From Terriglobia bacterium (GTDB lineage: Bacteria > Acidobacteriota > Terriglobia > JAJPHL01 > JAPKYU01), in assembly GCA_965206645.1 (NCBI GenBank), contig CBDBKE010000004.1:1541552-1605551 (forward strand): 64,000 nucleotides of DNA, in the 5' to 3' direction. Position numbers and translations under genes: made by a program. Below are positions 1,247-18,919 of the stretch, piece after piece. The notes beneath the pieces are model-generated. The model did not search any database. It was given only the letters and a program-made list of their open reading frames with translations, and was not told the origin of the DNA. Numbering within the stretch: position 1 is the first letter of the stretch; each line of letters begins with the position of its first letter.

Positions 1247-2659
1247 AAGTTCGTAGCGGCGGTTCGGAGCCATCATACTACGCCACCTCCCGTCGAGTGG
1301 CCGACTTTGATCCTTCGAGGATCGCTTTCAACATCCACAGGTCCTGGTACCCCATCAGGCGGCGGAAGTTTTTCTCCGTGGCCAGGAAGCTGGAGGCGAC
1401 CCAGCGCTGGACCATGGCCGCATCCCGCCAGCGGCACACCCGGCGAGTTCGCAACCTCACTCCCGCCTGCGGACTCTCGATGAGATTGGTGGTGGCCAGA
1501 CAGCGATGTAGCGAAGCCGGAAGCCCCAGCCGGTTGATGGTGAAACATTCCTCCAGACCCTCCCGTAAGCTGGCCGCCGCGGCCGGACAATCTCGCTCCA
1601 ACCATTGGGCCAACTTCTCCAGCTTGGCCCTGCCGGTCTTCGGATCCAACCGCCAGGCGGCCCGCATCGCCGCCCGCACCTGGTCCCGCTCTGGCTCCGG
1701 CAACCGGTCCAGGACGTTGCGCAACTTGTGGGCGCGGCAGCGCTGCACCGGCTGCTCGGCCCCGAACACGGCGCGGATCGCCGCCCGCAAGGCCTTCGAG
1801 CCGTCGATCACAAACAGCCGTTTCTGGGCCGGCTGCACCCCTCGCCGCACTAAACCTTCCAGCAAGTCCTGGACGGCCGCGGCGTTCTCCGTAGCCCCCT
1901 GCTGAATCCCCAGCACGTGCTTGTGCCCTTCCGCATCCACGCCCACAGCCGCAATCACGTGATGGTCGCCAAACACTATCCCGTCGATGTAGAGGATCAG
2001 CAACTCTACTTCCTCGAAGCGGCGGTTCAACAGACGTTCTAACTCGGCTGCGGCAGCCTCCATCGTTTCCCGGCTGACCGTGGAGCGCGACACACCCACG
2101 GTGTCCGCCATCTCCGGCAACACCCGCTGGTACTGCCGGGTCGAGACGCCCCGCAGCAAGATATCCAACATCCGGGCCCCCAGACCCTCGCCCTCCTGCA
2201 TGGCTTCGTAGGCCGGGAGGGGAACTTCTTTCCCCGCTCCCCGGCCTGGCCGCCGGAGCCGTGGCCTGTGCACGGCCAGCTTTCTCTCCTCGAAGCGGCG
2301 GTCAGGCGCACCCGTCCCCGCTGGCGCCCATACCAGCCCACCCCACGGCGCCGCCGGCCCTGACGGCGTGGACCGGCCACCTGCGCGGCCGACAACTCCA
2401 GCACCGCTTCAATCGCCGCCCTACCCACCACGTCGATCAGCTCGTCGACGGCTAACCGCGATTGTTCGATCAACTCCACCCAGGGCAGCAGAAACTGCCC
2501 GTGGCGAGCCAGGTAGGCAGCCAGTTTGCGGGAGCTTCGGCTATCGCTCCGGCCTAGGATGTGGTAGCTTCTCTGCACGGCGGTTCCCCTTTCCAGAAAG
2601 TTTCCCAACCCGATTCTACGGAACCAGGTCAGCGAACCGCCGCTCAACTTTCAACTAAA
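1238..2659 (-). mobile_element. IS256-family insertion sequence (~1.4 kb) nested inside another IS256 transposase gene
   Basis: Terminal inverted repeats: AGTTGAAAGTTCGTAGCGGCGGTTCG at ~1241 and its reverse complement (CGAACCGCCGCTCAACTTTCAACT) at ~2633-2656. A transposase gene sits between them. Confidence 0.65.
1278..2647 (-). CDS. IS256-family transposase, split into two overlapping ORFs (2647..2039 and 2273..1278) by a frameshift near 2270
   Basis: The N-terminal ORF (MSGGSLTWFRR...DELIDVVGRAAIEAVLE) and the C-terminal ORF (...YIDGIVFGDHHVIAAVGVDAEGHKHVLG...CRAHKLRNVLD) together make a typical IS256 Tnp. Confidence 0.8.
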
Positions 2660-2974: not shown

Positions 2975-3077
2975 TACCTTTTGAAAAGGAAAAAAAGGGA
3001 GCCTCGTCTGGATGAGGCTCCCCTGTAGTTTTCGGTCTTGGCGTTCAGGCGCACACACGCCGTCAGGAAGGAAGCGA

Positions 3078-3099
3078 GTACAGGCCTTGCGGCCTGTAC
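3078..3099. repeat. Perfect 22-bp palindrome GTACAGGCCTTGCGGCCTGTAC (REP-like hairpin)
   Basis: Read directly. It shares the CAGGCC-N4-GGCCTG core with neighbouring elements. Confidence 0.55.
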
Positions 3100-3134
3100 T
3101 CTACGCCTAAGCGCAACCGAAGGAGATGGAAACT

Positions 3135-3188
3135 GAGCACAGGCCTTAGCGGCCTGTGCTCTCTACAACCCAGGCAGGAATGCCTGCC
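3135..3188. repeat. REP-like perfect palindrome GAGCACAGGCCTTAGCGGCCTGTGCTC, plus a second hairpin GGCAGGAATGCCTGCC
   Basis: Read directly. The 11-bp arms are perfect. Related copies lie at 2920 and 5133. Confidence 0.6.
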
Positions 3189-3195
3189 GCTATGC

Positions 3196-4635
3196 TTAGT
3201 CCTTCTCTTCACGATCCACGATGGCCAGATAGCCCTGCGCCGCCGTGGGGCCGTCGGTCCCGCCGTAGCCGTTGGAGATGAAGGCGAAGCCCTGGCCGTT
3301 TTCAAAGTCACAGTTCACGTCGAGAAAACCCTGGAAGCCCACAGCGATCGCCGACAACACGTAAGTCTCGCTGCCCCAGGACTTGACCTCCATCGTCTCC
3401 ATATCGGCGGGATTGGCCTCCGCACCATAGAACTTGATCTCGCAAGTTCCGGGATAGTCGGAAGCGTTCGTGAAGGCGATCCCGGTGTCAAAGCCTCCCG
3501 CGTTGGTCACGAACGGAAAGAGCAGGCTCGTCTCGCAGGGATCGAATCCGATGACCCGCACGGCAGCGGCATCAGCGAACTGCGGATTTCATTAGTGTCA
3601 GCACTGACGAAACCCACGCTCACCATGCCGTCGGCGATCATGGTGTCTTCTTCCCACGTGAAGCTCACCATCAACGTATTTCCCTGAGTCATATCATTCG
3701 CATCGGTAACGGTGTAAGTGATATCACCATCTCCATCGTTATCCAATGCAACCTCGACCATGGTTCCATCGGCGTCCGCTTCGCCTTCACCGGTCAGCGT
3801 GACTTTCATGCCATCGTCTGCGTTCGTCGGTCATGTTGTCGGCTGTATGGGTGATCATGACTTCCACGCCGTCCGGGATGCCGGAGAAATTGACTTCCAC
3901 CATGCCGTGTCATCAGCATCATCGTTGGTCAACGCCCCTACAAAGCCTTCCATGATCGAGATGCTGGCCATTCCGGTGGTTCCGACCCGGCATTGCAAAA
4001 CGTTGGCATCGTCCACCTTGACGACCAGTCCGGTTTTGACATCCGAGACATCGAACGCCCCCGGCGACACGGACTTGGTGTTCACAGTGAGTTGGGCGCT
4101 TATCTCTCCGTCGTCTCCCACCATGTAGGCGTTGGCTCGGATGCCGGCGATGACCACATTGAAACCGTTGCCGCCAGTTCCCAAGCCGAGATCTGCGCCG
4201 CTGAGTTCCTCCCACACGATCGTGTTCGGGTCCTCATCTTCATCAATCATCGGGCCGTCACCGTCGTCGGCAGCCATCAAACACGTCATCGGCTATAGTT
4301 TGGCCGCCCACAGTCCCAGTAGCGGTCAGCTCAGCAGCGCCAACATAGTTCAAGTCAGCCAGGCTGGTGATTGGAGTGTTCAGCGTAACGCTTAAGGTGA
4401 AATCGGTTACTGCAAACAGCGAGCCGGTGTCCTCTGAAGGCACGCACCGCAGCTCGATGCCGCCGATCTCTTCGGTCGTGCCCTCGGCGCGCACATTGGC
4501 CACTGCATTGTCACCCGTAGCAGCCCGCGCCTCGCACCGTTGCGCCTGGGCCACGCTGCTGCTCAACACGATGGCCGCGAGCAGGGACATCATGACGATG
4601 CCGCTTTTGAAAACTGCTTTCCGAATCTTTGCCAT
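3196..4635 (-). pseudogene. Secreted hypothetical protein gene broken by at least 3 frameshifts. Signal peptide MAKIRKAVFKSGIVMMSLLAAIVLSSSVAQA; Asp/Gly/Thr-rich extracellular protein
   Basis: Four consecutive minus ORFs (4686..4258, 4289..3855, 3809..3507, 3561..3196) overlap in different frames and read as one protein. A GGAGAG RBS precedes the ATG at 4635. Confidence 0.55.
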
Positions 4636-4730
4636 TGCCGTTCTCTCCTTCGATTTTTGAATCGTACTGGTTGAAATTTCTTGCAAAACTTTCTCTTCCT
4701 GCCGCTCGATCTAAAACTGCATTGGATTAC

Positions 4731-4780
4731 AGGCGGGGCAGGCAGGAACGCTTGCCGCTGCCTGAACGCCTGTCCTACCT
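4731..4780. repeat. GGCAGGAACGCTTGCC-type REP-like element
   Basis: Related to GGCAGGAATGCCTGCC at 3173-3188. Confidence 0.35.
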
Positions 4781-5132
4781 GAACGTTCTTGAATGCAACA
4801 CCAGCTCGCCGACTTTCTGCTTAATCTGCTTCCTTCATCTACGCTGCACGAACTCCAGGGTCAATTCGCTCTATATGCGGACCTACCAGAGACACGGGGA
4901 ATATGACACTTTCAGTTTCAGCCTGTCAATCTTTTTTCTTTGCCAGCTATGCTGCCCCCCGTAATCGCTGTGGTTCAAACAGCCGGGCAGATAATTTGGG
5001 GCTCAAAACAGTTGTTCATGGTAATCGGCTCAATCGGGGAATGCAAGAGTTTTTTGGGGAATTTTTCAAGATTTTTTCAGGGGGAGGGGGTGCACGAAAA
5101 AGCAAGAGAGAAGTGCAGGGGGGGATGGAATG

Positions 5133-5160
5133 GAGCACAGGCCTGGAGGCCCGTCGCCAT
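5133..5160. repeat. Partial REP-like element GAGCACAGGCCTGGAGGCCCGTCGC
   Basis: Shares the GAGCACAGGCC arm with elements at 2920 and 3135. Confidence 0.4.
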
Positions 5161-5171
5161 CTGGGCGCGTC

Positions 5172-5441
5172 TCATCGCGGGCTCTGGCAAAACCTGAGGG
5201 AGCGGGACCGAAAGGTTAATTTCATGGCCGTCGCCCGGGAGTAGCAGGCCCTATTGCGGGCCACCAACCGCTTGCGCAGCACCTTCTCGGCTTCGCCTTT
5301 CTCCTTTCGGCCTGTCGACTCCTGTCTGAACTTTCCGTTGTGGTCACGGTAACTCATCCACCAGACGCGTGAACCGCGCCGGGAGTACAGGCTACCGGCG
5401 GCCTTGCTGGGTCTACCTGTCTTGTTCATCGATTCCTCCAT
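5172..5441 (-). pseudogene. Tyrosine (phage-type) integrase, N-terminal arm-binding domain only. The catalytic domain is missing
   Basis: GSLYSRRGSRVWWMSYRDHNGKFRQESTGRKEKGEAEKVLRKRLVA is a typical integrase N-terminus. The ORF ends after 89 aa. Confidence 0.5.
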
Positions 5442-5629
5442 TCACATGAAAGCTGTCGCCACTCGGCCAACTCCGACAGTCGGAAGCGGATCGAGCGGCC
5501 CATCATGCGGTAATGGGGAATCTGCTTTCGCTCGACGTAAGCATACACCAGCGAGAGGCTGCCGCCCAAGAATCGGGCTGCGTCCTTCACCGTGATGGGG
5601 GCATCTGTCGCTTTTCCGTCCAGGCTCAT
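5426..5629 (-). CDS. Excisionase/AlpA-family helix-turn-helix DNA-binding protein
   Basis: ITVKDAARFLGGSLSLVYAYVERKQIPHYRMMGRSIRFRLSELAEW matches the excisionase HTH pattern. A GGGAGGG RBS lies 5 nt before the ATG (MSLDGK). It sits directly upstream of the integrase stub. Confidence 0.65.
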   Translation of the reverse strand: MSLDGKATDAPITVKDAARFLGGSLSLVYAYVERKQIPHYRMMGRSIRFRLSELAEWRQLSCEWRNR

Positions 5630-5789
5630 CGTTCCCTCCCTACTTTCCATACCAAACCACAAGGGAGAACTCCGCGCGGAGAGTCCGTTGCGATTGTGTC
5701 GTTAGTCCTACTCACACTCGGCATCACGTTTGATCTGCTCGATGATCTGATTGGCAAAGCGGCGATGGTATTCCTCTGCCGTCATCGCC

Positions 5790-6749
5790 CTACCCCTCAT
5801 CGTGTTGCCTCCCGATCGGCTCAATGAGCCAGCGGTTCTGTGGCGCGTCGTAACCTTTGACGAGCAAGGCCTCCTCCACAAATCGCCGCCCTTCGCGCCG
5901 CGTCATGTGAATCACCATCGCAATGCCGTCCACGACGCCCCGGCAGGTGACTTCCCAGGGAAGCTCTCCGCCGCCTTGCATGGCGCAACTGGCGAGCCGT
6001 GACAAGGCGCTTTCGGCGTTGTTGGCGTGCACGGTGGTGAGCGAGCCGCCGTGTCCGGTGTTGAGGGCTTGCAGCAGATCGGCGGCCTCCCCGCCGCGCA
6101 CCTCGCCCACTACGATGTGATCCGGGCGGTGACGCAAGGCATGGCGCACCAGGTCCCGGATCGTCACGGCTCCGGTTGCCAGTCCGCGAGCCTCGAAGCG
6201 GACGCAATTGGAGTGCTCGATGCGAAGCTCCAGGGTGTCCTCGATGGCGACGATGCGCTCGTCGTCGGGCAGCAATTCGATGAGCGCATTGAGAAGGGTG
6301 GTCTTGCCCGAGCCGGTGCCGCCTGAAACCAGGATGTTCCGGCGGGTGTACAACATCCGCTCGGCCGCTTCTTTGACGTTCAACGGCAGCGCCCCTTGTT
6401 CAACCAGGTCCGCCGCTGAAAACGACCGTTTACCAAAGCGCCGAACGGTGATCGCCACCTTCGGGCTGGCGGGCGGAACGCAGATTGCTACACGCGAGCC
6501 GTCGTCTAGGCGAGCATCGACGATGGGCGCCGTGGCCGGGTCCAGGCCGAGAGGCCGCGCAATATGGATAGCGGCCCTTTGAAGCGCCGCAGCGGTCAGC
6601 AGCGGGGCCTCGTGGGAATAGAGCTTCCCATGCCCCTCGATCCAGACGTTGTGCGGGCCGTTTATCATGATCTCGCTCACTTCCGGGTCCTCCAGAACAT
6701 CCTCCAGGCCGGGCAAAAACGGTTTCAACAACTCCAGGCCGTCGCTCAT
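5790..6749 (-). CDS. trbB: Conjugative type IV secretion ATPase TrbB/VirB11 family
   Basis: Walker A SGGTGSGKTT and the VirB11/CpaF signature (GEVRGGEAADLLQALNTGH). Next to a T4CP gene. Confidence 0.85.
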   Translation of the reverse strand: MSDGLELLKPFLPGLEDVLEDPEVSEIMINGPHNVWIEGHGKLYSHEAPLLTAAALQRAAIHIARPLGLDPATAPIVDARLDDGSRVAICVPPASPKVAITVRRFGKRSFSAADLVEQGALPLNVKEAAERMLYTRRNILVSGGTGSGKTTLLNALIELLPDDERIVAIEDTLELRIEHSNCVRFEARGLATGAVTIRDLVRHALRHRPDHIVVGEVRGGEAADLLQALNTGHGGSLTTVHANNAESALSRLASCAMQGGGELPWEVTCRGVVDGIAMVIHMTRREGRRFVEEALLVKGYDAPQNRWLIEPIGRQHDEG

Positions 6750-8776
6750 ATCTTTCCTTCTGCTTTCGCACGCCAGTAGGGAAGCGACCGGGGCAGATAG
6801 TGGGGTTTGAGGTACACGCGGGTTGCCGGCAGTGACTGTGCGCCGTCGTAGGGCAGGCAGATTGCTTGGCAGTTGGAGAGCAGGGCAAACTCGCGGGGCT
6901 GAAACACTGCCTCGCGTTGTTCGCGGAAGGATTTGCTGGCTCCTACGCTGCCGGCGCCGCCACCGGCCTGGGCCGAGAGCATGGATACCTCACTTTGCTT
7001 GGCAGATTCGGTGATGGTATAGGAGGGTTTGATCTTGGCTACCTGCCCGCACAGAGCCGAGGCGGTTTGAGCGCTGGCGTCATCGCTCAAGGAAAGGAAT
7101 ATCCGGGTGCGGAGCGTTTGCAGCAGGGTGCGCCACGCCTCGCCGCTGCCGAGAACGGAGCGCAGCGAGCTGATTGATTGCGTGGCGACGATCAGAATGC
7201 AGCGGCACTGCCGGGTGAGGGCAAAGGATTTCTCGTCGCCGGAAGGATCGTCCTCGCCGACCGAAGCAAACGACTGGTACTCGTCGCAGATGAACACGGC
7301 GGGCCGGAAGTATTGATCCGGCGCTTCCTTCATCTGCGCCGGTCGCCGCAGGAGCGATTGCAACCAGGCGTTCTTGAGCATTACTCCTACAGCTCGTGCC
7401 AGCGCCGGGTTGCTGCCGGCCGGCATATTCAGGGCCAGCACCTTGCCCGACTCGATCAGCTTGTCGAGGGGCGGCAAGCTCTGCCGTACTCTCGTTCCCA
7501 GTCCCGGCTGTTCGTCTTGCTTTGGCTCTCCATTTCCGTTCGCCGCCGCCTTCTCCGGTGGCGGTGGTGGACAGAACACCCGCGCCACGCTTGGCAGGTC
7601 GAATATGGACAGAAAAACTGAGATGCCCTCGACGATGCTCGACCGGATTTTGTTGTCGATCATTCCCCAGTCGTGTTGATACCAGCGATTGACGGCCTCG
7701 ACCCGCTTGCGAATCTCTTCTGTCTTTACGCTCTCGGTCCACTCGATCTTATATTCGATCTGGAGTTCTTTGAGCTGGGCTACAACCGCTGGGCTGTGGT
7801 CCGTGTAGAATGTGTTCTCTTGCTCGATCGGAATCCATTTTCTCTTCCCGGAGCGCAGCGAGGGGATGTTTGCTCCATAGTCCGTGGCGGATATAAACAC
7901 GGCGCCCTCGCGAAGATCGCTGGCGTATGCTTCGGCCTCTTGGATTTTGGCCGCAAACAGTTCCTTGTCGATGGCGCAGTGATAGACTTGCTGCAATGTG
8001 ACCCATTGGCCGGGGAACACCCGGTAGAGTTCGATGATCCAGCGGACCAGGTTGGTGTAAGCCTGTTGCCAAAACGGCTCCTTCCCTTTGCCGAACAACT
8101 GGTTGAGCAGGGAGGAAACGGTGTAGGCCAGCGAGTAAGAATCAAGCCACTCTGCCGAGAGTGGATTCCATTGCCAGCGGCCCTCCATCCCCAGCTCGAT
8201 GTAATCTTCCTCCCGGCCCGCGTCGGCAAGGATTCGCCGGATTTCATAGCAGAAATCGCCCTTGACTTCCAGCACCAGGCCAGCCGCCCGGCGCTGGGGA
8301 TCGCGGGCCTGCCATGACAAGATTTGCTCTGCGAATGGGCGCATGCAAGCCGAGGTCTTGCCGGACCCCACGGCGCCGAAAATTGCCACTCCGGTGTACA
8401 GGCCGCGCTCCGGGATAGTGAGCCAGGAAGGGTTGCGAGATTCGACGGCTTTGACCGGGTGGTGAACCTCCCCAACAACGATCGCCGGCCCGGCGTCTTT
8501 TGCGGGATTCAGGGGCCACGTTGGCAGCATTCCAATGTTCGGCATAGCGATGCCCCAAGAATTAAACCAGACCCGCCAGACCGTGATGAGAAACAGTCCG
8601 CCGACGATGACGGCGGCGGCTGGCGCGAGGTAGTACCACCAGACGATCCAGGTGTAGAAGTTGGGGGTGTGATAGAGCACCAGGTCGAGCATTGGATCGT
8701 CGCCGGGCATGGGGAAAGGCCGGTAGAGGAAACCCCAAGCGGAGCAGCCAAGCCCAGCAACTATCAGGATCGGATG
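6746..8776 (-). CDS. traG: Type IV coupling protein (TraG/VirD4 family)
   Basis: N-terminal TM segments and Walker A GAVGSGKTS; ~670 aa. GGAGG RBS before the ATG at 8776 (MKIRHPIL). The upstream in-frame extension to 9196 runs through a repeat-rich non-coding region and is not believed. Confidence 0.8.
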   Translation of the reverse strand, partial: HPILIVAGLGCSAWGFLYRPFPMPGDDPMLDLVLYHTPNFYTWIVWWYYLAPAAAVIVGGLFLITVWRVWFNSWGIAMPNIGMLPTWPLNPAKDAGPAIVVGEVHHPVKAVESRNPSWLTIPERGLYTGVAIFGAVGSGKTSACMRPFAEQILSWQARDPQRRAAGLVLEVKGDFCYEIRRILADAGREEDYIELGMEGRWQWNPLSAEWLDSYSLAYTVSSLLNQLFGKGKEPFWQQAYTNLVRWIIELYRVFPGQWVTLQQVYHCAIDKELFAAKIQEAEAYASDLREGAVFISATDYGANIPSLRSGKRKWIPIEQENTFYTDHSPAVVAQLKELQIEYKIEWTESVKTEEIRKRVEAVNRWYQHDWGMIDNKIRSSIVEGISVFLSIFDLPSVARVFCPPPPPEKAAANGNGEPKQDEQPGLGTRVRQSLPPLDKLIESGKVLALNMPAGSNPALARAVGVMLKNAWLQSLLRRPAQMKEAPDQYFRPAVFICDEYQSFASVGEDDPSGDEKSFALTRQCRCILIVATQSISSLRSVLGSGEAWRTLLQTLRTRIFLSLSDDASAQTASALCGQVAKIKPSYTITESAKQSEVSMLSAQAGGGAGSVGASKSFREQREAVFQPREFALLSNCQAICLPYDGAQSLPATRVYLKPHYLPRSLPYWRAKAEGKI

Positions 8777-8860
8777 GCGTATTTTCATGGGGCTTGCCTC
8801 CGGCGCCTCAGCGCCCGCTTGGGGTTCAGGTTCGGAGCCTTCCCGCAGGGACAAATCAGA

Positions 8861-9160
8861 CGAGAGCGACCCCCAAAAAAGGGGGGGCAGGGTATGCCAC
8901 AAACCCTGCCACAAACCCCTTTTCCTGTTTGCCGATAGAGCGGCAAAAAAGGGGGGGTCGCTCTCGTCTTTCCCCGCCCCTCTCCTTCTGGCGCGGGATG
9001 GCCTGGTAGTAGCAGGAAAACCACTGCGAGGCAAAGAAATAGACAAAATGAGTGTTGCCACAAAAAATGCCGATTCTTGCCACGCCCCCCCCCTTATATA
9101 AGTGGCAAAAAAGATCGGCACGGCCACCGTTTGTGGCAGGCCAAAAAAACGCTCTATCTC
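8861..9160. promoter_or_regulatory. Repeat-rich intergenic region, candidate oriT or operator. It has a 13-bp inverted repeat GAGAGCGACCCCC/GGGGGTCGCTCTC flanking G/C tracts, and TGCCACAAA direct repeats with inverted TTTGTGGCA copies
   Basis: Read directly. Located between the replication-relaxation gene and the coupling-protein gene. Confidence 0.35.
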
Positions 9161-9195
9161 GGAAACGTCCACTGGAGTTCCATTGCTGCGGTTCA

Positions 9196-10164
9196 TTAGA
9201 CTGTCTCCACCACCTTCACGCGGTCAGAAACCCACGTCTCGAAGCCGTCGATCGTGGCTCCGATTGAGCCGCTTGTCTTGGGCAGGTCTTTCAGTTCCAT
9301 CAACCTGTCCGAGATTTCCTCGACACTGCCGTACTTCCTTATGATCCTCATGTCCACATTGATAATTGCGGCCTCGATCAGCTTGATTTCCGCCTGCACG
9401 TTCGGGTCGTTCCGGCTCGGTCCATCTGCCCGCTGACTGCTCTGCTCACCCCCTCGGCTGCTCCACGTCTTTAGCGCCGCTTCGGCCCGGATTGTGGCTT
9501 TGTAGTCCGCTCCGATTACGACGGCGCGGACCTCGATGCCTTGCAACCGCAAAGCCTTCCAAAGCCACTCATGCGAGTCGCCCCACGATCGCAACTCGGT
9601 ATCGGTATCTTTGCCCGGATCGACGTAGACGAACGATGAGGATTTAGCATCGCAAGCGATAGGCAGTTTCAGGGCAAAGTATCGGGTTTGTGTCCCCACG
9701 GCTCCCTGATAGACCCGCTTGGGCAAGCGCCTGCGGTCGATGCCCAGTAAATCGAAGAAAGCGACCTTTTCCTGCTCGGTGGGCAGCCAAGGAAGCTCCG
9801 GGTTCTCCAGAACATAGTCGAGCGAGAGCAACCGCCGTAGCATGACGGAATCATCCCCCTCTCGGCGGTGCCGGACGTTCTCAATTCCCAGCTTGCGGTA
9901 AATCTCTTTGTTGGATATTCGGACCGCCTTCGGTCCACCGCGTCTGTTAGGAAGAGCGTCCTCTATGGCAAGCCTGCGCTCCACCATGTCGCGCACAAAT
10001 CGCAATGCTCGCTTTCGATCCGACACGGCATCGAAGAAGTGGCAGAATTGCGCCCTCGTGAACACGCCGCTATGCAGACAGACCAGGGCGATCCACTCCG
10101 CTTCGCGGCCCTTCCAGCCGAACGACTTCAGGGCTTTTTCTCGATCATGGAGATGTTTAATCAT
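9196..10164 (-). CDS. Replication-relaxation family protein (PF13814-like), a possible non-canonical relaxase or mobilisation protein
   Basis: The N-terminus LHDREKALKSFGWKGREAEWIALVCLHSGVFTRAQFCHFF fits the L-x-RD...L...R....T..Q...FF winged-helix pattern of this family. Context: between T4CP and trbF. Confidence 0.45.
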   Translation of the reverse strand: MIKHLHDREKALKSFGWKGREAEWIALVCLHSGVFTRAQFCHFFDAVSDRKRALRFVRDMVERRLAIEDALPNRRGGPKAVRISNKEIYRKLGIENVRHRREGDDSVMLRRLLSLDYVLENPELPWLPTEQEKVAFFDLLGIDRRRLPKRVYQGAVGTQTRYFALKLPIACDAKSSSFVYVDPGKDTDTELRSWGDSHEWLWKALRLQGIEVRAVVIGADYKATIRAEAALKTWSSRGGEQSSQRADGPSRNDPNVQAEIKLIEAAIINVDMRIIRKYGSVEEISDRLMELKDLPKTSGSIGATIDGFETWVSDRVKVVETV

Positions 10165-10166
10165 TG

Positions 10167-10829
10167 CTACTCGCCGGTCACTAAAGCCCGGTCGCCTCGC
10201 AGGTAGGTGACAATGATTCCCATAGGGTTGAAAACCATCAATTCGGTTGGAATTTCATCCAGGAACATGAACTGCATGGAGACTGTCCAGCGTTCGCGCT
10301 GGCTCTCGACCGCATTCACCAGGCGCACCAGGTCGAAGTCGGCGGTGGCGCCGTGGGGTTCCTGTTGGTTGGCCTGAATCCGCAAGACCACGCGCTCGAC
10401 CTGGAGCTCTTCTCTGGTGACTCCTGCCGCCAGCATGGCGATATTCTGGCCTTCGGCGCGGAAAGCCTCGTTGGCTAGTCCGGTGGTCAAAAAGCGTAGG
10501 CTGCGGGACCACGCTTGTTCGACCGTAGCCCGCCGCCGGGAGTAGTAGTCGTCGATGAAGCGATTCAGAAAATACTTGGTGGTGGGGTCCAGCGGATCGG
10601 CCTGGGCCTCGACCGTCTCATAGGCCAGCGCCTCGGCCCGGCCTACCTCGTCCACGCGGACGACGATCGGTCGCGGCGCTTCAACCGACGACAGCCGGAT
10701 GATGTTGACTACCAGCAGCAAACAGAGTCCTGCCAAACCCATCGACAGGACGCGCAAGTGCCGGTTGGAGTGGATCGCCTCGCCCCAAATCTCGGCGTAG
10801 GTCTTTGCGGTTTCGTTCTCTTTGCTCAT
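10167..10829 (-). CDS. trbF: Conjugal transfer protein TrbF (VirB8-like)
   Basis: N-terminal TM then an NTF2-like domain. The start at 10829 overlaps the trbL stop (TAATG) with a GGAGGG RBS. The longer ORF to 11021 is an artefact. Confidence 0.7.
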   Translation of the reverse strand: MSKENETAKTYAEIWGEAIHSNRHLRVLSMGLAGLCLLLVVNIIRLSSVEAPRPIVVRVDEVGRAEALAYETVEAQADPLDPTTKYFLNRFIDDYYSRRRATVEQAWSRSLRFLTTGLANEAFRAEGQNIAMLAAGVTREELQVERVVLRIQANQQEPHGATADFDLVRLVNAVESQRERWTVSMQFMFLDEIPTELMVFNPMGIIVTYLRGDRALVTGE

Positions 10830-11827
10830 TACAACCCTCCTTTTGCCGCCTTCGCTGCGCCACCGGCAGCGGCTCCGGTGCCGCCCGCCGCCGCCATTGC
10901 CGCTCCCGTGATCCCGGAGCTGGTGACGGCGCTGCCGGTGACCAGCATGGAAGCCAGCTCGCCGACCTTGAGGGATGCCAGAATGCCGGCCACGAACAGC
11001 GGCAGGATAATCAGCACCCATCCTCCCATTACGGTTATGTCGAAGCTGATGACCTGGTTGGAGAAGGTAGTCACATAGCCCAGCGCCACGCCCATGAACA
11101 CCCGCATGACGGCTCCGGCCAGTGCGCCGTAGAGGCTGAAAACGATCAAGGATCGGAACCAGCCCCAGAACAGAAACGACATAGGCTCAAACAACAACCA
11201 GGGAATGAACAGCGGTCCTAAAAAGACAAGAATGGCAATCGCGAGCTGCGCCCAAAGCACCTGAGCGTAGGTGATGCAATACAGCAGCACCAGCATAGTC
11301 ATTGCAAAAATCATCATGATGGTGGCGGAGAACAACGTCATGATGGCGGCTCCGCCGGCTGTTATCAGGTCCCAAATCTGGTAGCCGTCCCACGCATCGG
11401 TGATGCGGGTCAAGTGGGTGTTGATCATGTTGGATAACTCGGTCCGCATGGCGGTTCCGACGTCGGCTATAAACATATCCATCAACCAGTTTCCGCCCTC
11501 CACAATCATGCTCGGAAAGGTGTAGGCGTTTGCTGGCACAGGCAGCGGGGTATCGTAGAAGTGCAGCATCACCCACGGAATCCAGAGGCCGATAATGAGC
11601 TTGATTAACTCCCACGGTTGGAAAGAGCCGGACAGGGCGATTTTCACCCCTGTCCAGACAATCATGATGGAGGCAAGCCCGGTCCAGAGCTGTTCTCCGG
11701 TAGACAGCAAAAGGGGGCCGCTGCCCCCTATGATGTTGTTCATTACTTGGGTCAGGAGACTTTCAAAGTTGTCGAGGTCTCCTGCCGGGATGTTGGTCGG
11801 AACAACTGGATCAATCTGTAATTGCAT
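10829..11827 (-). CDS. trbL: Conjugal transfer protein TrbL (VirB6-like)
   Basis: Polytopic membrane protein with a Gly/Ala-rich C-terminal tail (AAMAAAGGTGAAAGGAAKAAKGG), typical of TrbL. Confidence 0.8.
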   Translation of the reverse strand: MQLQIDPVVPTNIPAGDLDNFESLLTQVMNNIIGGSGPLLLSTGEQLWTGLASIMIVWTGVKIALSGSFQPWELIKLIIGLWIPWVMLHFYDTPLPVPANAYTFPSMIVEGGNWLMDMFIADVGTAMRTELSNMINTHLTRITDAWDGYQIWDLITAGGAAIMTLFSATIMMIFAMTMLVLLYCITYAQVLWAQLAIAILVFLGPLFIPWLLFEPMSFLFWGWFRSLIVFSLYGALAGAVMRVFMGVALGYVTTFSNQVISFDITVMGGWVLIILPLFVAGILASLKVGELASMLVTGSAVTSSGITGAAMAAAGGTGAAAGGAAKAAKGGL

Positions 11828-11871
11828 TGCTGTCTACCTCATTCTGCGGACCGGACTGCCGTCGAACGGAT

Positions 11872-12240
11872 TTACGGGGCGTACATGGGATGCAGTTGCA
11901 CTTTGAGACTGTCTCCGCCGTCGCTGCGTGAAGAAATCCCGGCAATCCGTTCGTTGAATACAATCTGCCCTTGCTGCCGATCGGCGAGCTGCGCTGCTAC
12001 GCGCTCCCGCCGGCGGCGTTCGGCTTCTAGTTCTTCCGCCGCTTGCTGCGCGGCCTGGAAGGCTTGCAACTGCGCCATTGCAGCGGTCAACTGTCCCTGA
12101 GTGACCATGCCGGCAACCTGGGCCTGGCCTAACGCGGTGCCGGATACGTTGCTGTTAGACCGCAGTCCGTTGTAGGAATCGAGAGCGGATTTGATCGCCG
12201 CCGACGCCTCTGCGGCGGCATCGGAGACGGCGTAATTTTG
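11872..12240 (-). pseudogene. trbJ: TrbJ-like conjugal transfer protein, C-terminal fragment. The N-terminus with its signal peptide is missing
   Basis: Gln/Ala-rich coiled-coil (QLTAAMAQLQAFQAAQQAAEELEAERRR). The in-frame upstream stretch NYAVSDAAAEASAAIKSALDSYNGL... ends abruptly at ~12240. Confidence 0.45.
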
Positions 12241-12349
12241 GCAGGGGGCATGTCAAGAATTTTTTCCGAAATGTGCCAGGAAAAAACAGGCCACTAGGGG
12301 GGACGCGGGGGTAGGGGCAGTAGGCATAGGTACCGCAATGTTTGCCGCC

Positions 12350-12530
12350 GCACTACGAGATGAACGGCGAATCTGGGGGACGGCCGGCGAATCCGGCCCG
12401 GTTACTGGCCGGTCAAGGAGGTTACCGGTCGGTCAAGAAATAGCGCTCGTCTGTGTGGAATCTCCTGGACTCCGTGAATATCCGAATCGCCAATTTTGTA
12501 GGCCGCCCGATTTGTAGGCCGCCCGACGGG
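12350..12530. repeat. Three successive pairs of short tandem direct repeats: GGCGAATC x2, GTTACyGGyCGGTCAAG x2, TTTGTAGGCCGCCCGA x2
   Basis: Read directly. Lies at the junction between the truncated trbJ and the 3' end of the secretin gene. Confidence 0.5.
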
Positions 12531-12593
12531 CTTTGAGGTTTTCCGTGTCCGCGACTGGATCGGCGGCCGCCCATGAAATTCCGCCGACCGGCC

Positions 12594-14870
12594 TTACTCG
12601 CTCTCCTGTCTGAGCGCCTTGCGCAATTCCTTCAATTTGTCGTGGAACTCCTTGGTGGCCATCTTGGCCTCGCCCATGTCCTTGATCACCCTGGGCGTGA
12701 GCAGGATGATCAGCTCGTTGCGGCTGGTGGAATCGCGGGTGGTGCCGAACAATAGCCCCAAGCCGGGAATGCGCCCTAACAGCGGCACTCGATTGGTGGA
12801 GACGATCCGGGTTTCCGAGATGATGCCGCCCAGGGCAATGGTCTCCCCGTCCTGCACCGTCACCTGAGTGGACACGGAACGCTTCTGGATCGAAGTCAGA
12901 GTACCGCTGCTGGTCGGCACGCTGACTTCCTGGTCGATACGCAACGTCACCAACCCGCTGGGATTGATGCGCGGTGTCACCGACAGGATCACGCCGGTAT
13001 CCCGCCGCTGGAAGGAACTGACAGGTGAGATGGTCCCGAAGGCTACGCCCTGCTGAGTCTGGAGGGGAATCTCCTGTCCTACCTGGATGCGCGCCTCGGT
13101 GTTATTGCTGGCCAAAAGCGTGGGCGCGGAAAGCACCCGTGTGCGTCCCCGGTTCTCCTGGGCATTCAGGAACAGGAACAACTCGCGGCTGCGGCCTATT
13201 AAGGTGCCCACCGAAGCGCTCAGGCCGGCGTTAGGAAACGTCTCCGTCCCGAAAGCGCTGAATTGCCCAACGGGATTCCGGGAGGCGCTGCTGCGCCGCT
13301 GGAGGAACGCTTCGACCCCGAAGGACAGCGCCCCCGATAAGGCGACCTCGTACACCTTGGCTTCAATGAGCACCTGCCGGGGCGCCACGTCCAGCCCCTT
13401 CATGGTCTCAAGGATGACTTCGTAGTCCTGCGGGGTAGCCTGGACGACCAGGGTATTGTTGATGGGGTCCGGAACAATGCGCGCCGGACTCTGCAACATT
13501 CCGCCCGGCACAGCAGCTATGAAGATTTGCCTGGAACCCCGGTACATAGAACCCCGCGATGTTTGGCCCACCCCGCCGACAGGAAACGACACACCTCCGG
13601 GCGTCATTCCTCCACCAGCCGCTCCCATCCCGCCGGGCGGTATCATCCCCGGCGCTGTCATCCCGGGCGCTGTCATCCCGGGCGCCGACGCTCCTGTTGC
13701 CTCCGCACCCATCATCGGCCGAGCTGCTCCGTAAAGGCCCGCCAATACGAAAGCCAACTCCCCCGCCGCCCTGTTTTCCACCTTGTAGGCAAAGTTCTGC
13801 AGTCCCCCACGGCGCACGGGCTTGTCCAGCTTCTCAATCCACTGCTGCACTTCCGAGTACACCTCGGAATTCGGAGTCGCCACCAGGATGGAGTTGATTC
13901 GCTCCAGTGCAATAAACCGCACCGCCGAGCCTTCCTTCGAGAGGGCATACGCCTTGAAGATTTCCTCCAGGTCCTTGACCAGGCTGCTGGCCTGGCTGTT
14001 CTCGATGGCAAACAACCGGACCCGCTGCTGCTCCAGCGCCGAGGTGTCAAACAGGTTCACCATCCCCATTAGCCGCTTCAGGCTGCGGCTGGTGTCGGTG
14101 ATGAGCAGGATGTTGCCCGGCTCGTGGGTCACGATGTGGCCCGCTTCCGACAGGTAGCTGCTCAGGATTTTCGACATATCCGCGGCGGTGACGAAGCTGA
14201 GGGCGACCACGTTCATCACCATGCGGTCATCAGGCGGCAGGCTGGCTCCAGTGGGATCCTGGGTGAGCGGTAGCGGAACACGCGGCGCTCCCTTCAGGGG
14301 CACGATCCGCCAGAAGCTGCCGCTCTGGACGGCCGAGGCCCCGTTGGCCCGCAGGATGGCCTGCAGCAGGGGCAGCAGGTCCTCATGACTCAGGTTGCCC
14401 AGGGTGTTGATGTTCACCACACCCTTCACCCCAGGGTCCACGACATAGTTCATCTTGAGTTCGGCGGCAATGATTCCAATCACCTGAAGCAGGTTGGCAT
14501 TCTCCAGGTGGAGGCTGATGCGCGCCCCAGCTCGCGTCTTCCCCGTTGCCGGTGCCGCTTCCGCCTCCTGCGCGGGAGGCTCTGCCGATGGCTGGTCTTG
14601 AGGCTGGGCAGTCGGTTGTTGCGGTTCCTGAGCCTGAGGCTCTGTCGGTTCCCCCTGCGCTGGCGGCTGGACCGGTTGCTCGGTTTGAGACTGCGCAGGT
14701 GGTTGCGCGGGTTCCTGGACCGGCGCGGCCTTCCTCGGAGTGCTGCCTGCGGCGACCGTCGACATCAGCCCCCAAACTGCTAAAACTAGGACGGCGCTAC
14801 CCAGTTGGCCTCTCAGTACACCGGATGTGAAATTCCGCATCCTCTTCGTGGTTCGTTTTATTCGGCTCAT
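12594..14870 (-). CDS. gspD: Type II secretion system secretin GspD
   Basis: N0/N1 domains and a secretin C-domain (VLSAPTLLASNNTEARIQVGQEIP...ELIILLTPRVI). Signal peptide present. Last gene of the gsp operon. Confidence 0.9.
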   Translation of the reverse strand: MSRIKRTTKRMRNFTSGVLRGQLGSAVLVLAVWGLMSTVAAGSTPRKAAPVQEPAQPPAQSQTEQPVQPPAQGEPTEPQAQEPQQPTAQPQDQPSAEPPAQEAEAAPATGKTRAGARISLHLENANLLQVIGIIAAELKMNYVVDPGVKGVVNINTLGNLSHEDLLPLLQAILRANGASAVQSGSFWRIVPLKGAPRVPLPLTQDPTGASLPPDDRMVMNVVALSFVTAADMSKILSSYLSEAGHIVTHEPGNILLITDTSRSLKRLMGMVNLFDTSALEQQRVRLFAIENSQASSLVKDLEEIFKAYALSKEGSAVRFIALERINSILVATPNSEVYSEVQQWIEKLDKPVRRGGLQNFAYKVENRAAGELAFVLAGLYGAARPMMGAEATGASAPGMTAPGMTAPGMIPPGGMGAAGGGMTPGGVSFPVGGVGQTSRGSMYRGSRQIFIAAVPGGMLQSPARIVPDPINNTLVVQATPQDYEVILETMKGLDVAPRQVLIEAKVYEVALSGALSFGVEAFLQRRSSASRNPVGQFSAFGTETFPNAGLSASVGTLIGRSRELFLFLNAQENRGRTRVLSAPTLLASNNTEARIQVGQEIPLQTQQGVAFGTISPVSSFQRRDTGVILSVTPRINPSGLVTLRIDQEVSVPTSSGTLTSIQKRSVSTQVTVQDGETIALGGIISETRIVSTNRVPLLGRIPGLGLLFGTTRDSTSRNELIILLTPRVIKDMGEAKMATKEFHDKLKELRKALRQESE

Positions 14871-14883
14871 CTCAGATTCTGCC

Positions 14884-15681
14884 TCATTTGGTTTTCTGTG
14901 CCGCCGGGAGATCCTCATACCAGGTCTGTACACCAAATGGCGTTACCCGGTCGTATCTCTTCCGGTTACCTTCGACGGTGACGGTTAAATAGCGATCCCC
15001 GGTGGAGGAGCCGGTCGCTGGGGCGACAGCGGGAGCGGTGGCGGCTCCTGGGGTGGGTGTAGACGCCGGCCCTGCAGAAGAAGCTGAAGGGGCAGCCGGA
15101 ACAGCGGTCAACACCTGGTCGGCCGCGGTGCCGGCCGGGCGGGCGGGCCGGACTGCGGCCCGCCCGGCGGCCTGGCGCACGTTTTCGGCTGACTCGTAGA
15201 CATCAATGGTAGTCTTTTGGCCCTCGAATTCGATGACCACCTGGTGCTCGGCGATTTCCGCTACGCGATAGCCACCGATTTCATCGCCCACCTTGAGCCG
15301 GCGGAATGTGGCCTGCCTGGCCTGTTGCGGCTCGGCCATCAGGGCCACCGGACCGCTGCCGAGGTTCAAGGTTCCAATCACCAAGGGGACCGGCGGCCGG
15401 ACCTTGGATACGCTTGCCAACGCCTGGTCGTTATTGCGGTCGGGGCTGAACAGGTTGCGGGTGAGCAGCACGGAGTAGCTGTCCGGGACAGCCGCCAGTC
15501 CAGCTTCAGCCATGCCTGCTTTGGACACACCTGGCCCGGGGGTGGCTGCTGAGGTCACAAACTGCTTGTAGCGGGCATGATTGCTCTGCCAGGCATTGTG
15601 GATGGCGGCGGCAACCCACATCGCCAGCGTCAAGAGGGCTAGGTTGAGATAGGTTATCGGTTTGCGCATGCTTTCTCTCAC
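14884..15681 (-). CDS. gspC: GspC/PilP-like secretin-interacting protein
   Basis: N-terminal TM (LNLALLTLAMWVAAAI), a Pro/Ala linker, and a beta-rich HR-like segment VGDEIGGYRVAEIAEHQVVIEFEGQKTTIDV. Sits immediately upstream of the secretin. Confidence 0.55.
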   Translation of the reverse strand: MRESMRKPITYLNLALLTLAMWVAAAIHNAWQSNHARYKQFVTSAATPGPGVSKAGMAEAGLAAVPDSYSVLLTRNLFSPDRNNDQALASVSKVRPPVPLVIGTLNLGSGPVALMAEPQQARQATFRRLKVGDEIGGYRVAEIAEHQVVIEFEGQKTTIDVYESAENVRQAAGRAAVRPARPAGTAADQVLTAVPAAPSASSAGPASTPTPGAATAPAVAPATGSSTGDRYLTVTVEGNRKRYDRVTPFGVQTWYEDLPAAQKTK

Positions 15682-16340: not shown

Positions 16341-17883
16341 GACTGGCCACCTCCTCCGCTCGTGCCGGCGTCTCCCGCAACCGCATCCGGATCTGGAAGG
16401 CCTCCCGCCCTTGTTTGCTCTTGGTGATCGCGGTGATGAATTCCGGCTGTTGGAAATGCGGCGACTGATTGATGGCCTGTAGAATGCCGGAAGCGGATTG
16501 GGCTTGCCCGGAGGCCGTCACCTGGTTATCCTCAAACTGGAGTGTTTGCAGCCAGGCCGCATCGGGAACCAGGCGAGTCAGTTCCTTCCACGCCTCGAGC
16601 CTGAGCGCGATATCCTGCCGCTGGCCCTGTAGCAGATCCCATTCCAACAACAGCGCCTGGTGGCGGGAATTCAGCTGTTCCAGACGCTCCACCTGGGGCT
16701 GCAGCTTGCTGATCTCCGAGTTCAACCAGGAGGAATAGAAGCGGTCCTGCACCCATGTGGTTGCGAGCCAGGCAGCGCCGAGCAACAGCACAAGTACCAC
16801 CAACGCATAGGCCGAGGTATGTGTCCAGCGGGAGCGCCAGTGGGAACGCCAGTGAGAGCGGTAGCGCTTCTCCGCCGGCAGCAGATTCCAGCGCAGGCCA
16901 GCTGGGGGAGCCATCAACGGGAGGCGGAGCTCGAGGCCCGGCAAGGCCGCTGCGTAAGCCACAAGATGCTCCTTCAGCCGGAACTCTGCCGGCCCCGCCT
17001 CGGGGGTGACCACGGGAATACCCTCTGCCGGGGACCCGCTCGACGGCGCAGAGTCTCTCACCGCCGCCTGTTCTCTGACTTGCTGTTCTCTGATTTCGGG
17101 TTCCGGCGCGATGTCTTCGCCGCTTTCCAGCATCTGCGGGCTATCCTGGGGATCGAGTCGCAACTCGGCCGCGCAAAGCTCCACTTCGCGCTGCAACGAG
17201 GACCCGGCCGCAACTTCTTTGGAATAGAACGCGCCATCGGGCGCGACCCCCAGCAGTTCCACCACCTGCCCGCAGTGATCCAGCAACACCAACGGGCGGC
17301 GCAGTCCAGGCATGTTCCGGGATTGATTCAAGGAAGCCCCGCGCAGCGCCTGGTACAACACAGCCGTGGAGAGGGTAAAGCCGGCCACGTCCACGCCCGC
17401 CTGGCCGAACCACTGGTAGAGCTGATCGAGCGCACTCTTCTCCACAAGCGCCACAGCCACCCGCAGCCGCCTTCCGAGGCCCTCCTCCGAGGCGCCGGTC
17501 CCATTGCCCGCGCCGCGCGCAGGCGATTCGGGCAGCAGCGCGTAGTCGAAATAGACGCTGCCTTCCTCGAAGGGGTGGAGCTGATCTACCTGGTAGGCCA
17601 CCGTCTGGCCCAGTTCTCGCCCAACTTCGGGGGGCAATTCCAGCGTTCGCACCAGGCCGGCTCCGCGCGGGAGCGCCACCAGCGCGCTGGTCGTCAACGC
17701 ATGATTCTCTTCGCGGAAGCGCCGGTACTGCTGGGCCACCTCGGCCACCGGCCGGGTGCGGAAATCCTCAATCCGGAGGAATCCGCTGACGCGCAGGCGA
17801 TGCCCGCGGCCGCGCAGGGAGACGGCTTCCAGGTGACTCCCCCGAATCGCAATGCCGATGCTGGTCCCCAGGTGGACGGTCAT
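16333..17883 (-). CDS. gspL: GspL-like protein: cytoplasmic actin-like (PilM-like) domain, TM, then a PilN-like periplasmic coiled-coil domain
   Basis: 516 aa. The N-terminus is ATPase-fold-like, followed by TM YALVVLVLLLGAAWLATTWV and a C-terminal coiled coil. Operon position matches gspL. Confidence 0.6.
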   Translation of the reverse strand: MTVHLGTSIGIAIRGSHLEAVSLRGRGHRLRVSGFLRIEDFRTRPVAEVAQQYRRFREENHALTTSALVALPRGAGLVRTLELPPEVGRELGQTVAYQVDQLHPFEEGSVYFDYALLPESPARGAGNGTGASEEGLGRRLRVAVALVEKSALDQLYQWFGQAGVDVAGFTLSTAVLYQALRGASLNQSRNMPGLRRPLVLLDHCGQVVELLGVAPDGAFYSKEVAAGSSLQREVELCAAELRLDPQDSPQMLESGEDIAPEPEIREQQVREQAAVRDSAPSSGSPAEGIPVVTPEAGPAEFRLKEHLVAYAAALPGLELRLPLMAPPAGLRWNLLPAEKRYRSHWRSHWRSRWTHTSAYALVVLVLLLGAAWLATTWVQDRFYSSWLNSEISKLQPQVERLEQLNSRHQALLLEWDLLQGQRQDIALRLEAWKELTRLVPDAAWLQTLQFEDNQVTASGQAQSASGILQAINQSPHFQQPEFITAITKSKQGREAFQIRMRLRETPARAEEVASHD

Positions 17884-17926
17884 TTCCGATACGCTCGCTT
17901 CTTCAAGTCCTCGTTCATAGCCCAGT

Positions 17927-18919
17927 TCACAAAATGACCCGCTGCTCTTCTACTGCCTGTTCATCCCAGGCCACTAGCTCGGTTCGGCCGTTGGCTTCCC
18001 GGCGGAAGATGGCGCGCACCGACGCTCGCGTGGCTGAGCCGCGGAGCCGGCCCGTGGCAGTCAGGGTGAACAGGTCCGAGATTCGATAGATTCCAAGGTG
18101 GGGCAAAGCCTCTGCGGGGATCGAAATTGGCAACTCGGTCAGGCTTTGGTAGAGCTTTTCCCGGCGTCCGGCGACGACTGCACGTACCCGCTCCTGGTCC
18201 ATGCCCGGCACGCTCAGCAACGCCTCGTAGGGAGCGTAGTTCACATCCAGCCTTGCGAAGTTCCCATACACCGTCAGCAGGCGGTTGAACCCGCCCCGCC
18301 GAACCAGCCGGTCATCCGCGTCGCGCTCCATCCAGCCGTAGAACAACTCTGGCGTGACCCCCTTGACCAACAGCAGTTCTTCGACCCGCTGGAAGGGCTG
18401 GTGCGCTGCCTGGTAGGGCTGCGCCAGACCGGCGTAAAACTGGTCAAAGACGCTCCCGACGCTCGAGGTGGCCGGCGCACGCCAATCGGCAATGGCCCGA
18501 GTGATCTCCCGGACGTCCATGTTCCCCACCCCGGCGGCTTGAAACAGCGTTTGCAGCCGCTCCACCGGGGCGGTGTTGACGTTCAGCTTGCCTGCTTCGG
18601 AGGCCACCCGGACGCGCGCCGTCCCGGTAGCGTAGGAAAACTCCAGGTAGGGCCGAGTGGGTTCGTAAAGCAATTTTTGTTCCGCGTCCCGCAAGCCGGG
18701 GGTTTGTACCAAGTAGAGCGCCTGTTCCAGAGCCCCGCGCGCCAGGAAGCGGCCTTGCTCAGCTTCCAGGCGGTAGCGGGTGGCGGCCAGCTCGGTTCGC
18801 ACCGAAAGAGCCAGCGCCAGTGCTACCAGCGACAGTGCAGCCGTCAGCCACATGACGAGCAACAAGACGGCGCCTTGCTCCGAATTCGAGCTCGGACTCC
18901 GGCCCACCGACTTTGGCAT
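17927..18919 (-). CDS. gspK: Type II secretion minor pseudopilin GspK
   Basis: Start MPKSVGRSP...GAVLLLVMWLTAALSLVALALALS matches the GspK N-terminus. GspK-like domain with helix-hairpin-helix region. The longer ORF to 19126 is an artefact. Confidence 0.75.
   Translation of the reverse strand: MPKSVGRSPSSNSEQGAVLLLVMWLTAALSLVALALALSVRTELAATRYRLEAEQGRFLARGALEQALYLVQTPGLRDAEQKLLYEPTRPYLEFSYATGTARVRVASEAGKLNVNTAPVERLQTLFQAAGVGNMDVREITRAIADWRAPATSSVGSVFDQFYAGLAQPYQAAHQPFQRVEELLLVKGVTPELFYGWMERDADDRLVRRGGFNRLLTVYGNFARLDVNYAPYEALLSVPGMDQERVRAVVAGRREKLYQSLTELPISIPAEALPHLGIYRISDLFTLTATGRLRGSATRASVRAIFRREANGRTELVAWDEQAVEEQRVIL

Follow-up and report, generated by a model that had tools for sequence, protein, structure and literature searches.

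The 64-kb window analysed here (64,000 nt of contig CBDBKE010000004.1 from a Terriglobia bacterium) carries at 5172–12237 what is very probably the deletion remnant left by an integrative and conjugative element (ICE) from a large family, in which the DNA-processing and coupling half of the element survives. By itself, the remnant builds no mating channel, does not transfer and does not excise. Among its surviving parts are a gene for a 322-aa protein, u322, and a structured non-coding region that separates u322 from the coupling-protein gene virD4; both are conserved in the family and are treated below as a candidate module for the initiation of DNA transfer (Table 1). Gene identities in the window are based on listing and translating open reading frames (ORFs), followed by Pfam and NCBIfam scans. 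Related loci came from a one-genome-per-species scan with TrbL, which gave 112 genomic loci, 80 of them kept, and the window was compared with its closest relatives by blastn against five loci (L004–L008). An initial annotation, made from the letters alone, had described a decayed conjugative element here, and the minus-strand genes that it listed, from the trbJ fragment to the integrase stub, are all present and in place.

In every one of the five relatives, homology breaks off exactly at 12237; towards the integrase it stops at ~5253 (5256 for L005), in agreement with the earlier view that both ends are truncated. The deletion junction lies at 12237/12238, with AATT microhomology at the join to trbJ. 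An empty version of the site was found in L086, whose type II secretion system operon is 96% identical to that of the window: window 12325–12239 corresponds to L086 12706–12794 and homology returns at window 4620 (L086 13243), so that ~7.6 kb of the window stands in place of ~450 nt in L086. A 48-nt chromosomal motif kept in L086 and L087 reaches precisely to the junction. The insertion is also present in L004, which shares the window sequence just past the integrase stub; there, a deletion at a GGGCG microhomology took away the stub and most of xis, and the whole type IV secretion system (T4SS) was kept. The empty site in L086, together with the same insertion with a full T4SS in L004, identifies the window copy as a deletion remnant.

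The losses account for half of the element. VirB2, VirB3, VirB4, VirB9, VirB10 and any recognisable relaxase were not found in the whole 64 kb: tblastn with a relative's VirB3, VirB4, VirB9, VirB10, ArdC, u311 and u106 gave no match anywhere in it, and the relaxase models of Pfam and NCBIfam matched no window ORF. The initial annotation was thus right that core channel genes are missing, that no MOB relaxase is recognised and that the remnant has no functional integrase, as only aa 1–66 of 393 are left. These residues of the L005 integrase align to window 5447–5253 with 79% identity (tblastn), after which the stub is unrelated read-through; its ORF matches no Pfam family, PF00589 (the catalytic domain) included. 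At the other end, residues ~177–298 of 298 of the trbJ-like protein survive in a frame that is open as far as 12243 and has no start. The window therefore holds no mating-pair-formation set with VirB4, no integrase with a catalytic domain and no recognised MOB relaxase, which sets it apart from a self-transmissible ICE. With its integrase truncated and its relaxase at most putative, it is not a classical integrative and mobilizable element either.

Parsimony favours a history in three steps. The element would have integrated on the downstream side of the type II secretion operon in a common ancestor of the window and L004 lineages, in which the integrase would also have lost everything past codon 66. 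In the window lineage, a second deletion would then have brought the chromosomal flank up against the interior of the trbJ-like gene via the 4-nt microhomology, removing the genes for the pilin, VirB3, VirB4, VirB9, VirB10, u311 and u106, and in the L004 lineage xis-int' would have been lost separately. Alternatively, two independent deletions may have ended at one hotspot. Two points weigh against the remnant reading. In an attR search, the post-integrase sequence of other elements shared nothing with window 5260–4620, and att sites were not identified; and the window branch has no excess of nonsynonymous changes, contrary to what long-standing decay would lead one to expect. The junction motif, at 12239–12290, contains TTGACA and is conserved in three genomes; an imperfect copy (~70%) lies at ~5010–5100 on the other side of the remnant. 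The pair may derive from an att site or from duplication of a promoter.

The initial annotation called the gene order non-canonical and scrambled. Because the order from trbJ to int is conserved in relatives, it is instead native to the family, and the arrangement u322-gap-virD4 recurs in 71 of 83 loci. The comparison with related genomes that the annotation proposed did turn up intact-type elements (L003, L004 and L005), and the full layout is (ArdC)-u311-u106-VirB3-VirB4-VirB9-VirB10-TrbJ-like-TrbL-VirB8-u322-[structured non-coding region]-VirD4-VirB11-xis-int. L003 reads TrbI-...-TrbL-VirB8-314aa-VirD4-VirB11-HTH_17-integrase, and L004 has, upstream of these genes, Ank-ArdC, u311, u106, VirB3, VirB4, VirB9, VirB10 and TrbJ298. 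In L005 the integrase is intact and the u322 orthologue (L005 position ~11870 onward) seems frameshifted from ~residue 70.

The T4SS of this family is VirB-like and divergent, and does not belong to the IncP Trb type. Scores for P-type components fall far short of their cutoffs (TrbF 34 versus 152; TrbJ 19 versus 225 for the full-length L004 protein; TrbE 232 versus 1020), and the VirB11/TrbB-type ATPase of the window reaches 225.6 bits with TIGR02788 (cutoff 250) and 200.8 bits with TrbB (cutoff 304.6). The label trbJ is based on the position of the gene in relatives and on one weak hidden Markov model (HMM) match to TrbJ (5.6e-4) of the full-length L004 protein. The family resembles ICEs with mating-pair formation of type T (MPF_T, VirB/Trb-type), such as those of the Tn4371 family, in having a tyrosine integrase and an excisionase at one end, homologues of VirB3/4/6/8/9/10/11 and VirD4, chromosomal integration and an ArdC-type accessory gene. 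It differs from them in its order (B3-B4-B9-B10-J-B6-B8-u322-D4-B11, not trbB-C-D-E-J-L-F-G-I), in that every component is far below the NCBIfam equivalog cutoffs, and in that no MOB_P, MOB_F, MOB_Q or MOB_H relaxase was detected near family loci; the window additionally lacks the VirB2–B10 half and the integrase catalytic domain. A survey of relatives that covered ±10 kb around trbL took in 57 flanking ORFs from more than 12 of them, and none matched a relaxase family of Pfam.

Family loci occur in Terriglobia/Bryobacterales, in many Gemmatimonadota (Longimicrobiales, Ca. Palauibacter) and in bins labelled Gamma- or Deltaproteobacteria, and several genomes hold more than one copy (two in CBDCTS01, four in OZ242324.1). 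No description of this ICE family in sponge symbionts or Acidobacteria was found in the literature searched, and the family is apparently undescribed. Judging by their names, several related records of metagenome-assembled genomes (MAGs) seem to be of marine sponge origin.

The non-coding region between u322 and virD4 was overlooked in the initial annotation, which began the coupling protein at 9196 rather than at 8788. The resulting 816-aa ORF is over-extended: a conserved MKIRHP start lies at 8788, its ATG context is conserved in seven loci, and the 8789–9196 extension has a dN/dS of 0.8 and 46% amino-acid identity to L004, compared with 95% for the VirD4 core, while its nucleotide conservation stays high. 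The region holds six copies of the hexamer GTGGCA (0.24 expected) and a perfect inverted repeat. Covariation of the inverted repeat was scored over 53 non-redundant loci. Its core, GCGACC/GGTCGC, is invariant across them, and each of the four outer pairs has undergone 9–20 double compensatory changes, is broken in one locus at most, and contributes to a total of ~53 changed cells with a single wobble pair; the small hairpin covaries too (16 double changes). As single-stranded DNA, 8789–9195 folds at −94.6 kcal/mol (z = −5.3), and it matches no Rfam family. The almost purely Watson–Crick compensation favours a DNA-level hairpin, and suggests that the inverted repeat acts as one rather than as an RNA leader. 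Lying next to u322, the region would be the family's candidate origin of transfer (oriT).

The protein u322 consists of an N-terminal winged helix and an alpha/beta domain that matches nothing known, with ~80 invariant residues outside the winged helix-turn-helix (wHTH). Its family counts 3658 homologues, in 2224 representative clusters at E ≤ 1e-3, and lacks a Pfam model. Searches of u322 against Pfam and NCBIfam at relaxed thresholds returned nothing even at E ≤ 10, a PDB sequence-profile search returned nothing, and tblastn against 72,556 plasmids gave no match. Three cluster representatives (P0359, P0386 and P0402) are independent fusions of ArdC-N and a zincin metallopeptidase to a C-terminal u322 domain, which ties u322 to conjugative DNA metabolism. 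Genes of the u322 family also occur solo, without a T4SS or virD4, next to defence islands with type I restriction, SIR2 and TIR systems (L002 10001–11883, followed by a u311 fragment and u106; L003 10001–10966).

The hexamer varies within the family together with u322. At the same positions, Terriglobia-type elements have GTACCA, GTTCCA, GTTTCC, GTTACA or GCGGCA instead, and Gemmatimonadota elements have TGCGCAC, TTTCAC, GATTCA, CCGGACA, GGACAC or GTGCAC. In 65 loci compared at matched VirD4 identity, pairs that share a motif had far higher u322 identity, a difference that none of 2000 label permutations reached (in the 50–60% VirD4 bin, u322 identity was 0.83 with a shared motif versus 0.47). 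The reverse did not hold across the 65 loci, as motif class does not predict VirD4 identity. Since u322 and virD4 both flank the region, the tracking of motif and u322 is not simple linkage. Three divergent GTACCA elements share an aromatic residue at u322 position 49, the start of the predicted recognition helix. From these sequence patterns, u322 is probably a sequence-specific protein that would bind the GTGGCA repeats, and it is a candidate relaxase or relaxosome protein, a role in which it would act on the adjoining region. Several copies of the family reside together on Longimicrobiales chromosomes, among them OZ242324.1 (L010, L023, L027 and L039), with four or more copies of differing repeat-motif classes; such co-residence suggests distinct specificities.

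The closest parallel among known systems is MOB_C (pAD1 TraX–oriT2, CloDF13 MobC). In Pfam, the relaxases of MOB_C make up Replic_Relax (PF13814; PMC5357655), a family that is classed as PD-(D/E)XK (PMC3424549). TraX, the MOB_C prototype, has an N-terminal wHTH and binds five direct repeats 70–120 bp from nic; a covalent intermediate is not detectable (PMC12857230). As reference we used pTEF1 TraX, whose gene lies ~700 bp from the coupling-protein gene; the CloDF13 record is frameshifted and poorly annotated and was dropped. Like these proteins, u322 has an N-terminal winged helix followed by another domain, its gene adjoins the coupling-protein gene with a transfer-origin-like region in between, and in the cis region a large conserved inverted repeat is accompanied, ~100 nt away, by short repeats that are specific to each element. 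This arrangement of short repeats at a distance from an inverted repeat resembles that of a MOB_C oriT, and it covaries with u322 among the loci compared. The differences are that u322 has 322 aa rather than 261, that its host element is a Gram-negative-type VirB-like ICE, and that the repeats form partly inverted pairs, two of them within the loop of the inverted repeat.

Taken at its fullest, u322 and the structured region could make up a DNA-processing system that is new to conjugation, with u322 as a family of relaxases or oriT-recognition proteins of more than 2,000 clusters at 50% identity that serves VirB-like ICEs without a canonical relaxase across Acidobacteriota, Gemmatimonadota and Proteobacteria MAGs, and that in the window would constitute a live chromosomal transfer origin usable by sibling elements. 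We advance this claim tentatively, as one that is rather doubtful in its entirety. The putative initiation module (u322, possibly u311, and the region of repeats and inverted repeat) is outside current relaxase classifications. The label 'replication-relaxation family' given to u322 in the initial annotation found no HMM support, and that annotation contradicted itself in naming such a protein while denying a MOB relaxase, PF13814 being a relaxase family.

Several results count against u322 as the initiator. It does not match PF13814 at E ≤ 10, although the control, pTEF1 TraX, matches at 2e-6. An hhalign comparison of 179 u322-family with 102 TraX-family sequences gave a probability of 4.4% (P = 0.009) and spans the wHTH and the next helix. 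The central domain of u322 shows no match to a restriction-endonuclease-like (PD-(D/E)XK) fold, in a poor model (pLDDT 63). The relaxase survey extended only ±10 kb around trbL. The repeats and inverted repeat could be a virD4 operator or leader instead of an oriT, and the relaxase proper could be u311, a second wHTH protein, which the window lacks. u311 is without a Pfam family and is always paired with u106; its HD, PD and E motifs are invariant and recall PD-(D/E)XK enzymes. The u311-u106 pair lies upstream of virB3 in Terriglobia elements and between virB11 and the integrase in Gemmatimonadota elements (u311 at L004 2214–3712 and at L013 ~17228–18420). A relationship of u311 and u322 as paralogues was rejected (hhalign probability ≤2%).

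There is an alternative that we consider possible, though less probable than not, in which u322 is a mere winged-helix regulator of the virD4-virB11 operon, 8789–9195 is its operator or leader, the true relaxase is u311 or is encoded outside the surveyed flanks, and the window has no DNA-nicking capacity. The repeats do sit just upstream of the virD4 start, and in Gemmatimonadota a conserved GGAAGG follows the small hairpin ~12 nt before the ATG, as a ribosome-binding site would; the wHTH and PD-(D/E)XK-like motifs of u311 also fit. However, the Watson–Crick covariation would suit a DNA hairpin better than an RNA leader, u322 is 322 aa long and has ~80 invariant residues beyond the wHTH, the ArdC fusions point to metabolism of transferred DNA, and solo u322 genes exist without virD4. 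As for u311, it fails every family test as well, including the PDB sequence-profile search.

The condition of the retained genes bears on whether the remnant is still in use. Six genes are intact, with dN/dS against L004 from 0.05 (virB8) to 0.29 (trbL); virB11 has 0.07 and even the trbJ fragment has 0.21. With changes polarised by four outgroups, the window branch carries 61 nonsynonymous and 119 synonymous changes and the L004 branch 49 and 117 (Fisher p = 0.42). The retained genes are under purifying selection rather than in free decay, and the 'advanced decay' of the initial annotation was an overstatement. Intact genes under purifying selection imply one of two things, a deletion that took place late compared with the divergence (dS ~0.2) or genes that remain in use, and the data fit recent deletion and continued use equally.

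Continued use would take the form of a functional helper-dependent transfer module, made up of a chromosomal oriT, u322, the coupling protein and VirB11, which a channel supplied by an intact sibling in the same cell would mobilise, with Hfr-like transfer of the flanking chromosome. The 'minimal mobilisable module' of the initial annotation is compatible with what the remnant keeps, namely the oriT-like region, its candidate binding protein and the coupling protein; it lacks an integrase. In its favour, besides the intact and constrained genes (the window branch being as constrained as that of L004), are the fully kept oriT-like region, with 17/17 inverted-repeat pairing and all six motif copies, the intact xis and the frequency of genomes with several family copies. 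We nevertheless consider it unlikely, and less likely than a dead remnant. The integrase is gone, so there is no excision; trbL and virB8 are also kept and would be superfluous in a pure mobilisation module; the helper copy is hypothetical, the analysis having covered 64 kb of this genome; a recent deletion explains the purifying selection equally well; and the deletions seen in L004 and in the window, successive and independent, form a pattern of erosion. Immobilised islands and 'hitcher' islands that keep only oriT or a relaxase have been reviewed (PMC11389934; bioRxiv 10.64898/2026.01.13.699239). The window resembles them in having lost channel genes and recombinase while keeping a candidate oriT and DNA-processing genes, and differs in also keeping the coupling protein, VirB11, VirB6 and VirB8.

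That the truncations are artefacts of long-read metagenome assembly (a chimeric join or a collapsed repeat) is extremely improbable, even though neighbouring genes have frameshift-like splits that differ among the window, L001 and L004 and the L001 contig is labelled 3x, because L001, an independent metagenome contig, carries both junctions across 18.9 kb at 99.2% identity, which rules out mis-assembly for practical purposes, while the integrase-side junction sequence is common to L004 at 83% divergence-level identity and the trbJ junction abuts the chromosomal motif conserved in L086 and L087.

Table 1. Features of the ICE remnant and its flanks (window coordinates)
Feature	Position	Strand	Remarks
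Segment next to integrase stub	4621–5171	−	Between integrase stub and return of chromosomal homology; common to L004
Integrase stub	5172–5441	−	89-aa ORF; aa 1–66 correspond to the N-terminal, arm-binding region of a tyrosine integrase of 393 aa
xis, excisionase-family HTH, intact	5426–5662	−	PF12728 HTH_17 4.9e-12; TIGR01764 3e-10
VirB11/TrbB-type traffic ATPase, intact	5790–6749	−	T2SSE 2.8e-49; VirB11 TIGR02788 7e-67
VirD4-type coupling protein	6746–8788	−	680 aa from MKIRHP; TraG-D_C 4.5e-8; TrwB_AAD_bind 9.5e-9; NF045973 VirD4-like 4e-10
Candidate oriT or operator, conserved non-coding	8789–9195	−	Between u322 and virD4
Small hairpin TCCCTGCGGGA	8841–8851		AGG follows
Perfect 17-bp inverted repeat	8858–8874 and 8953–8969		Arms
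Inner hairpin	8929–8946		
G-run	9085–9093		
GTGGCA hexamer, six copies	8895, 8907, 9056, 9078; 9102, 9133		First four direct, last two inverted
u322	9196–10164	−	322 aa; matches no Pfam or NCBIfam family
VirB8/TrbF-like	10167–10829	−	220 aa from MSKENE; PF04335 2e-15; NF010446 TrbF 1.7e-8
TrbL/VirB6-like, intact	10829–11827	−	PF04610 1.7e-11; 90% identity to L004
3' fragment of TrbJ/VirB5-position gene	11872–12237	−	Last ~120 of 298 codons; start codon absent
Chromosomal flank of insertion site	12239–12325	−	Contains 48-nt motif kept in empty sites L086 and L087

Among the retained proteins, the product of 6746–8788 has the domains of a type IV coupling protein, the VirB8/TrbF-like protein is 98.6% identical to that of L004, and xis has 84–92% amino-acid identity to relatives. 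Upstream of the remnant, 12594–14936 encodes the GspD secretin, the last gene of the type II secretion operon, and the remainder of the window is housekeeping chromosome. A promoter and terminator scan gave counts no higher than the shuffled level, and Rfam matches on 4500–13000 were at chance level only.

As the initial annotation had noticed, palindromes resembling repetitive extragenic palindromic (REP) sequences (GAGCACAGGCC-N5-GGCCTGTGCTC) lie on the low-coordinate side, at 2910–2973, 3066–3097, 3125–3188 and 5123–5154 (four matches versus 0.4 expected); within the 64 kb they occur on that side only, and the one at 5123–5154 comes directly after the integrase breakpoint and is common to L004. 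A surface-protein-like gene at 3196–4686 (minus strand) is one 493-aa ORF in L004, two (116 and 355 aa) in L001 and four here; the splits are frameshifts, from either a pseudogene or long-read assembly errors. An IS256-family transposase at ~1278–2647 (minus strand; the gene called in L001 has PF00872) is broken into two ORFs in the window, and homology to L001 ends at 1223, just beyond it; this divergence past the transposase suggests a rearrangement associated with the insertion sequence. In L086, a gene of the bAvd/23S_rRNA_IVP family, an accessory-protein family of diversity-generating retroelements, lies at 12332–12703 between gspD and the insertion site; the window is without it.

The remnant itself is ordinary, a case of routine ICE erosion in which an empty site and a more complete sibling allow the decay to be followed step by step, whereas the DNA-processing module of the family is moderately novel. 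Typing based on relaxases (MOBscan/CONJscan) would class the whole family as T4SSs without a relaxase, and a family with thousands of members among uncultured bacteria of several phyla would then be miscounted in mobilome surveys. If u322 and the region of repeats and inverted repeat are indeed the initiation module, the family would offer a testable protein–DNA code, in which each hexamer variant goes with particular residues where the recognition helix begins, and a new marker for such elements and their immobilised origins. u322 and its structured control region may be the way in which this widespread family starts DNA transfer.

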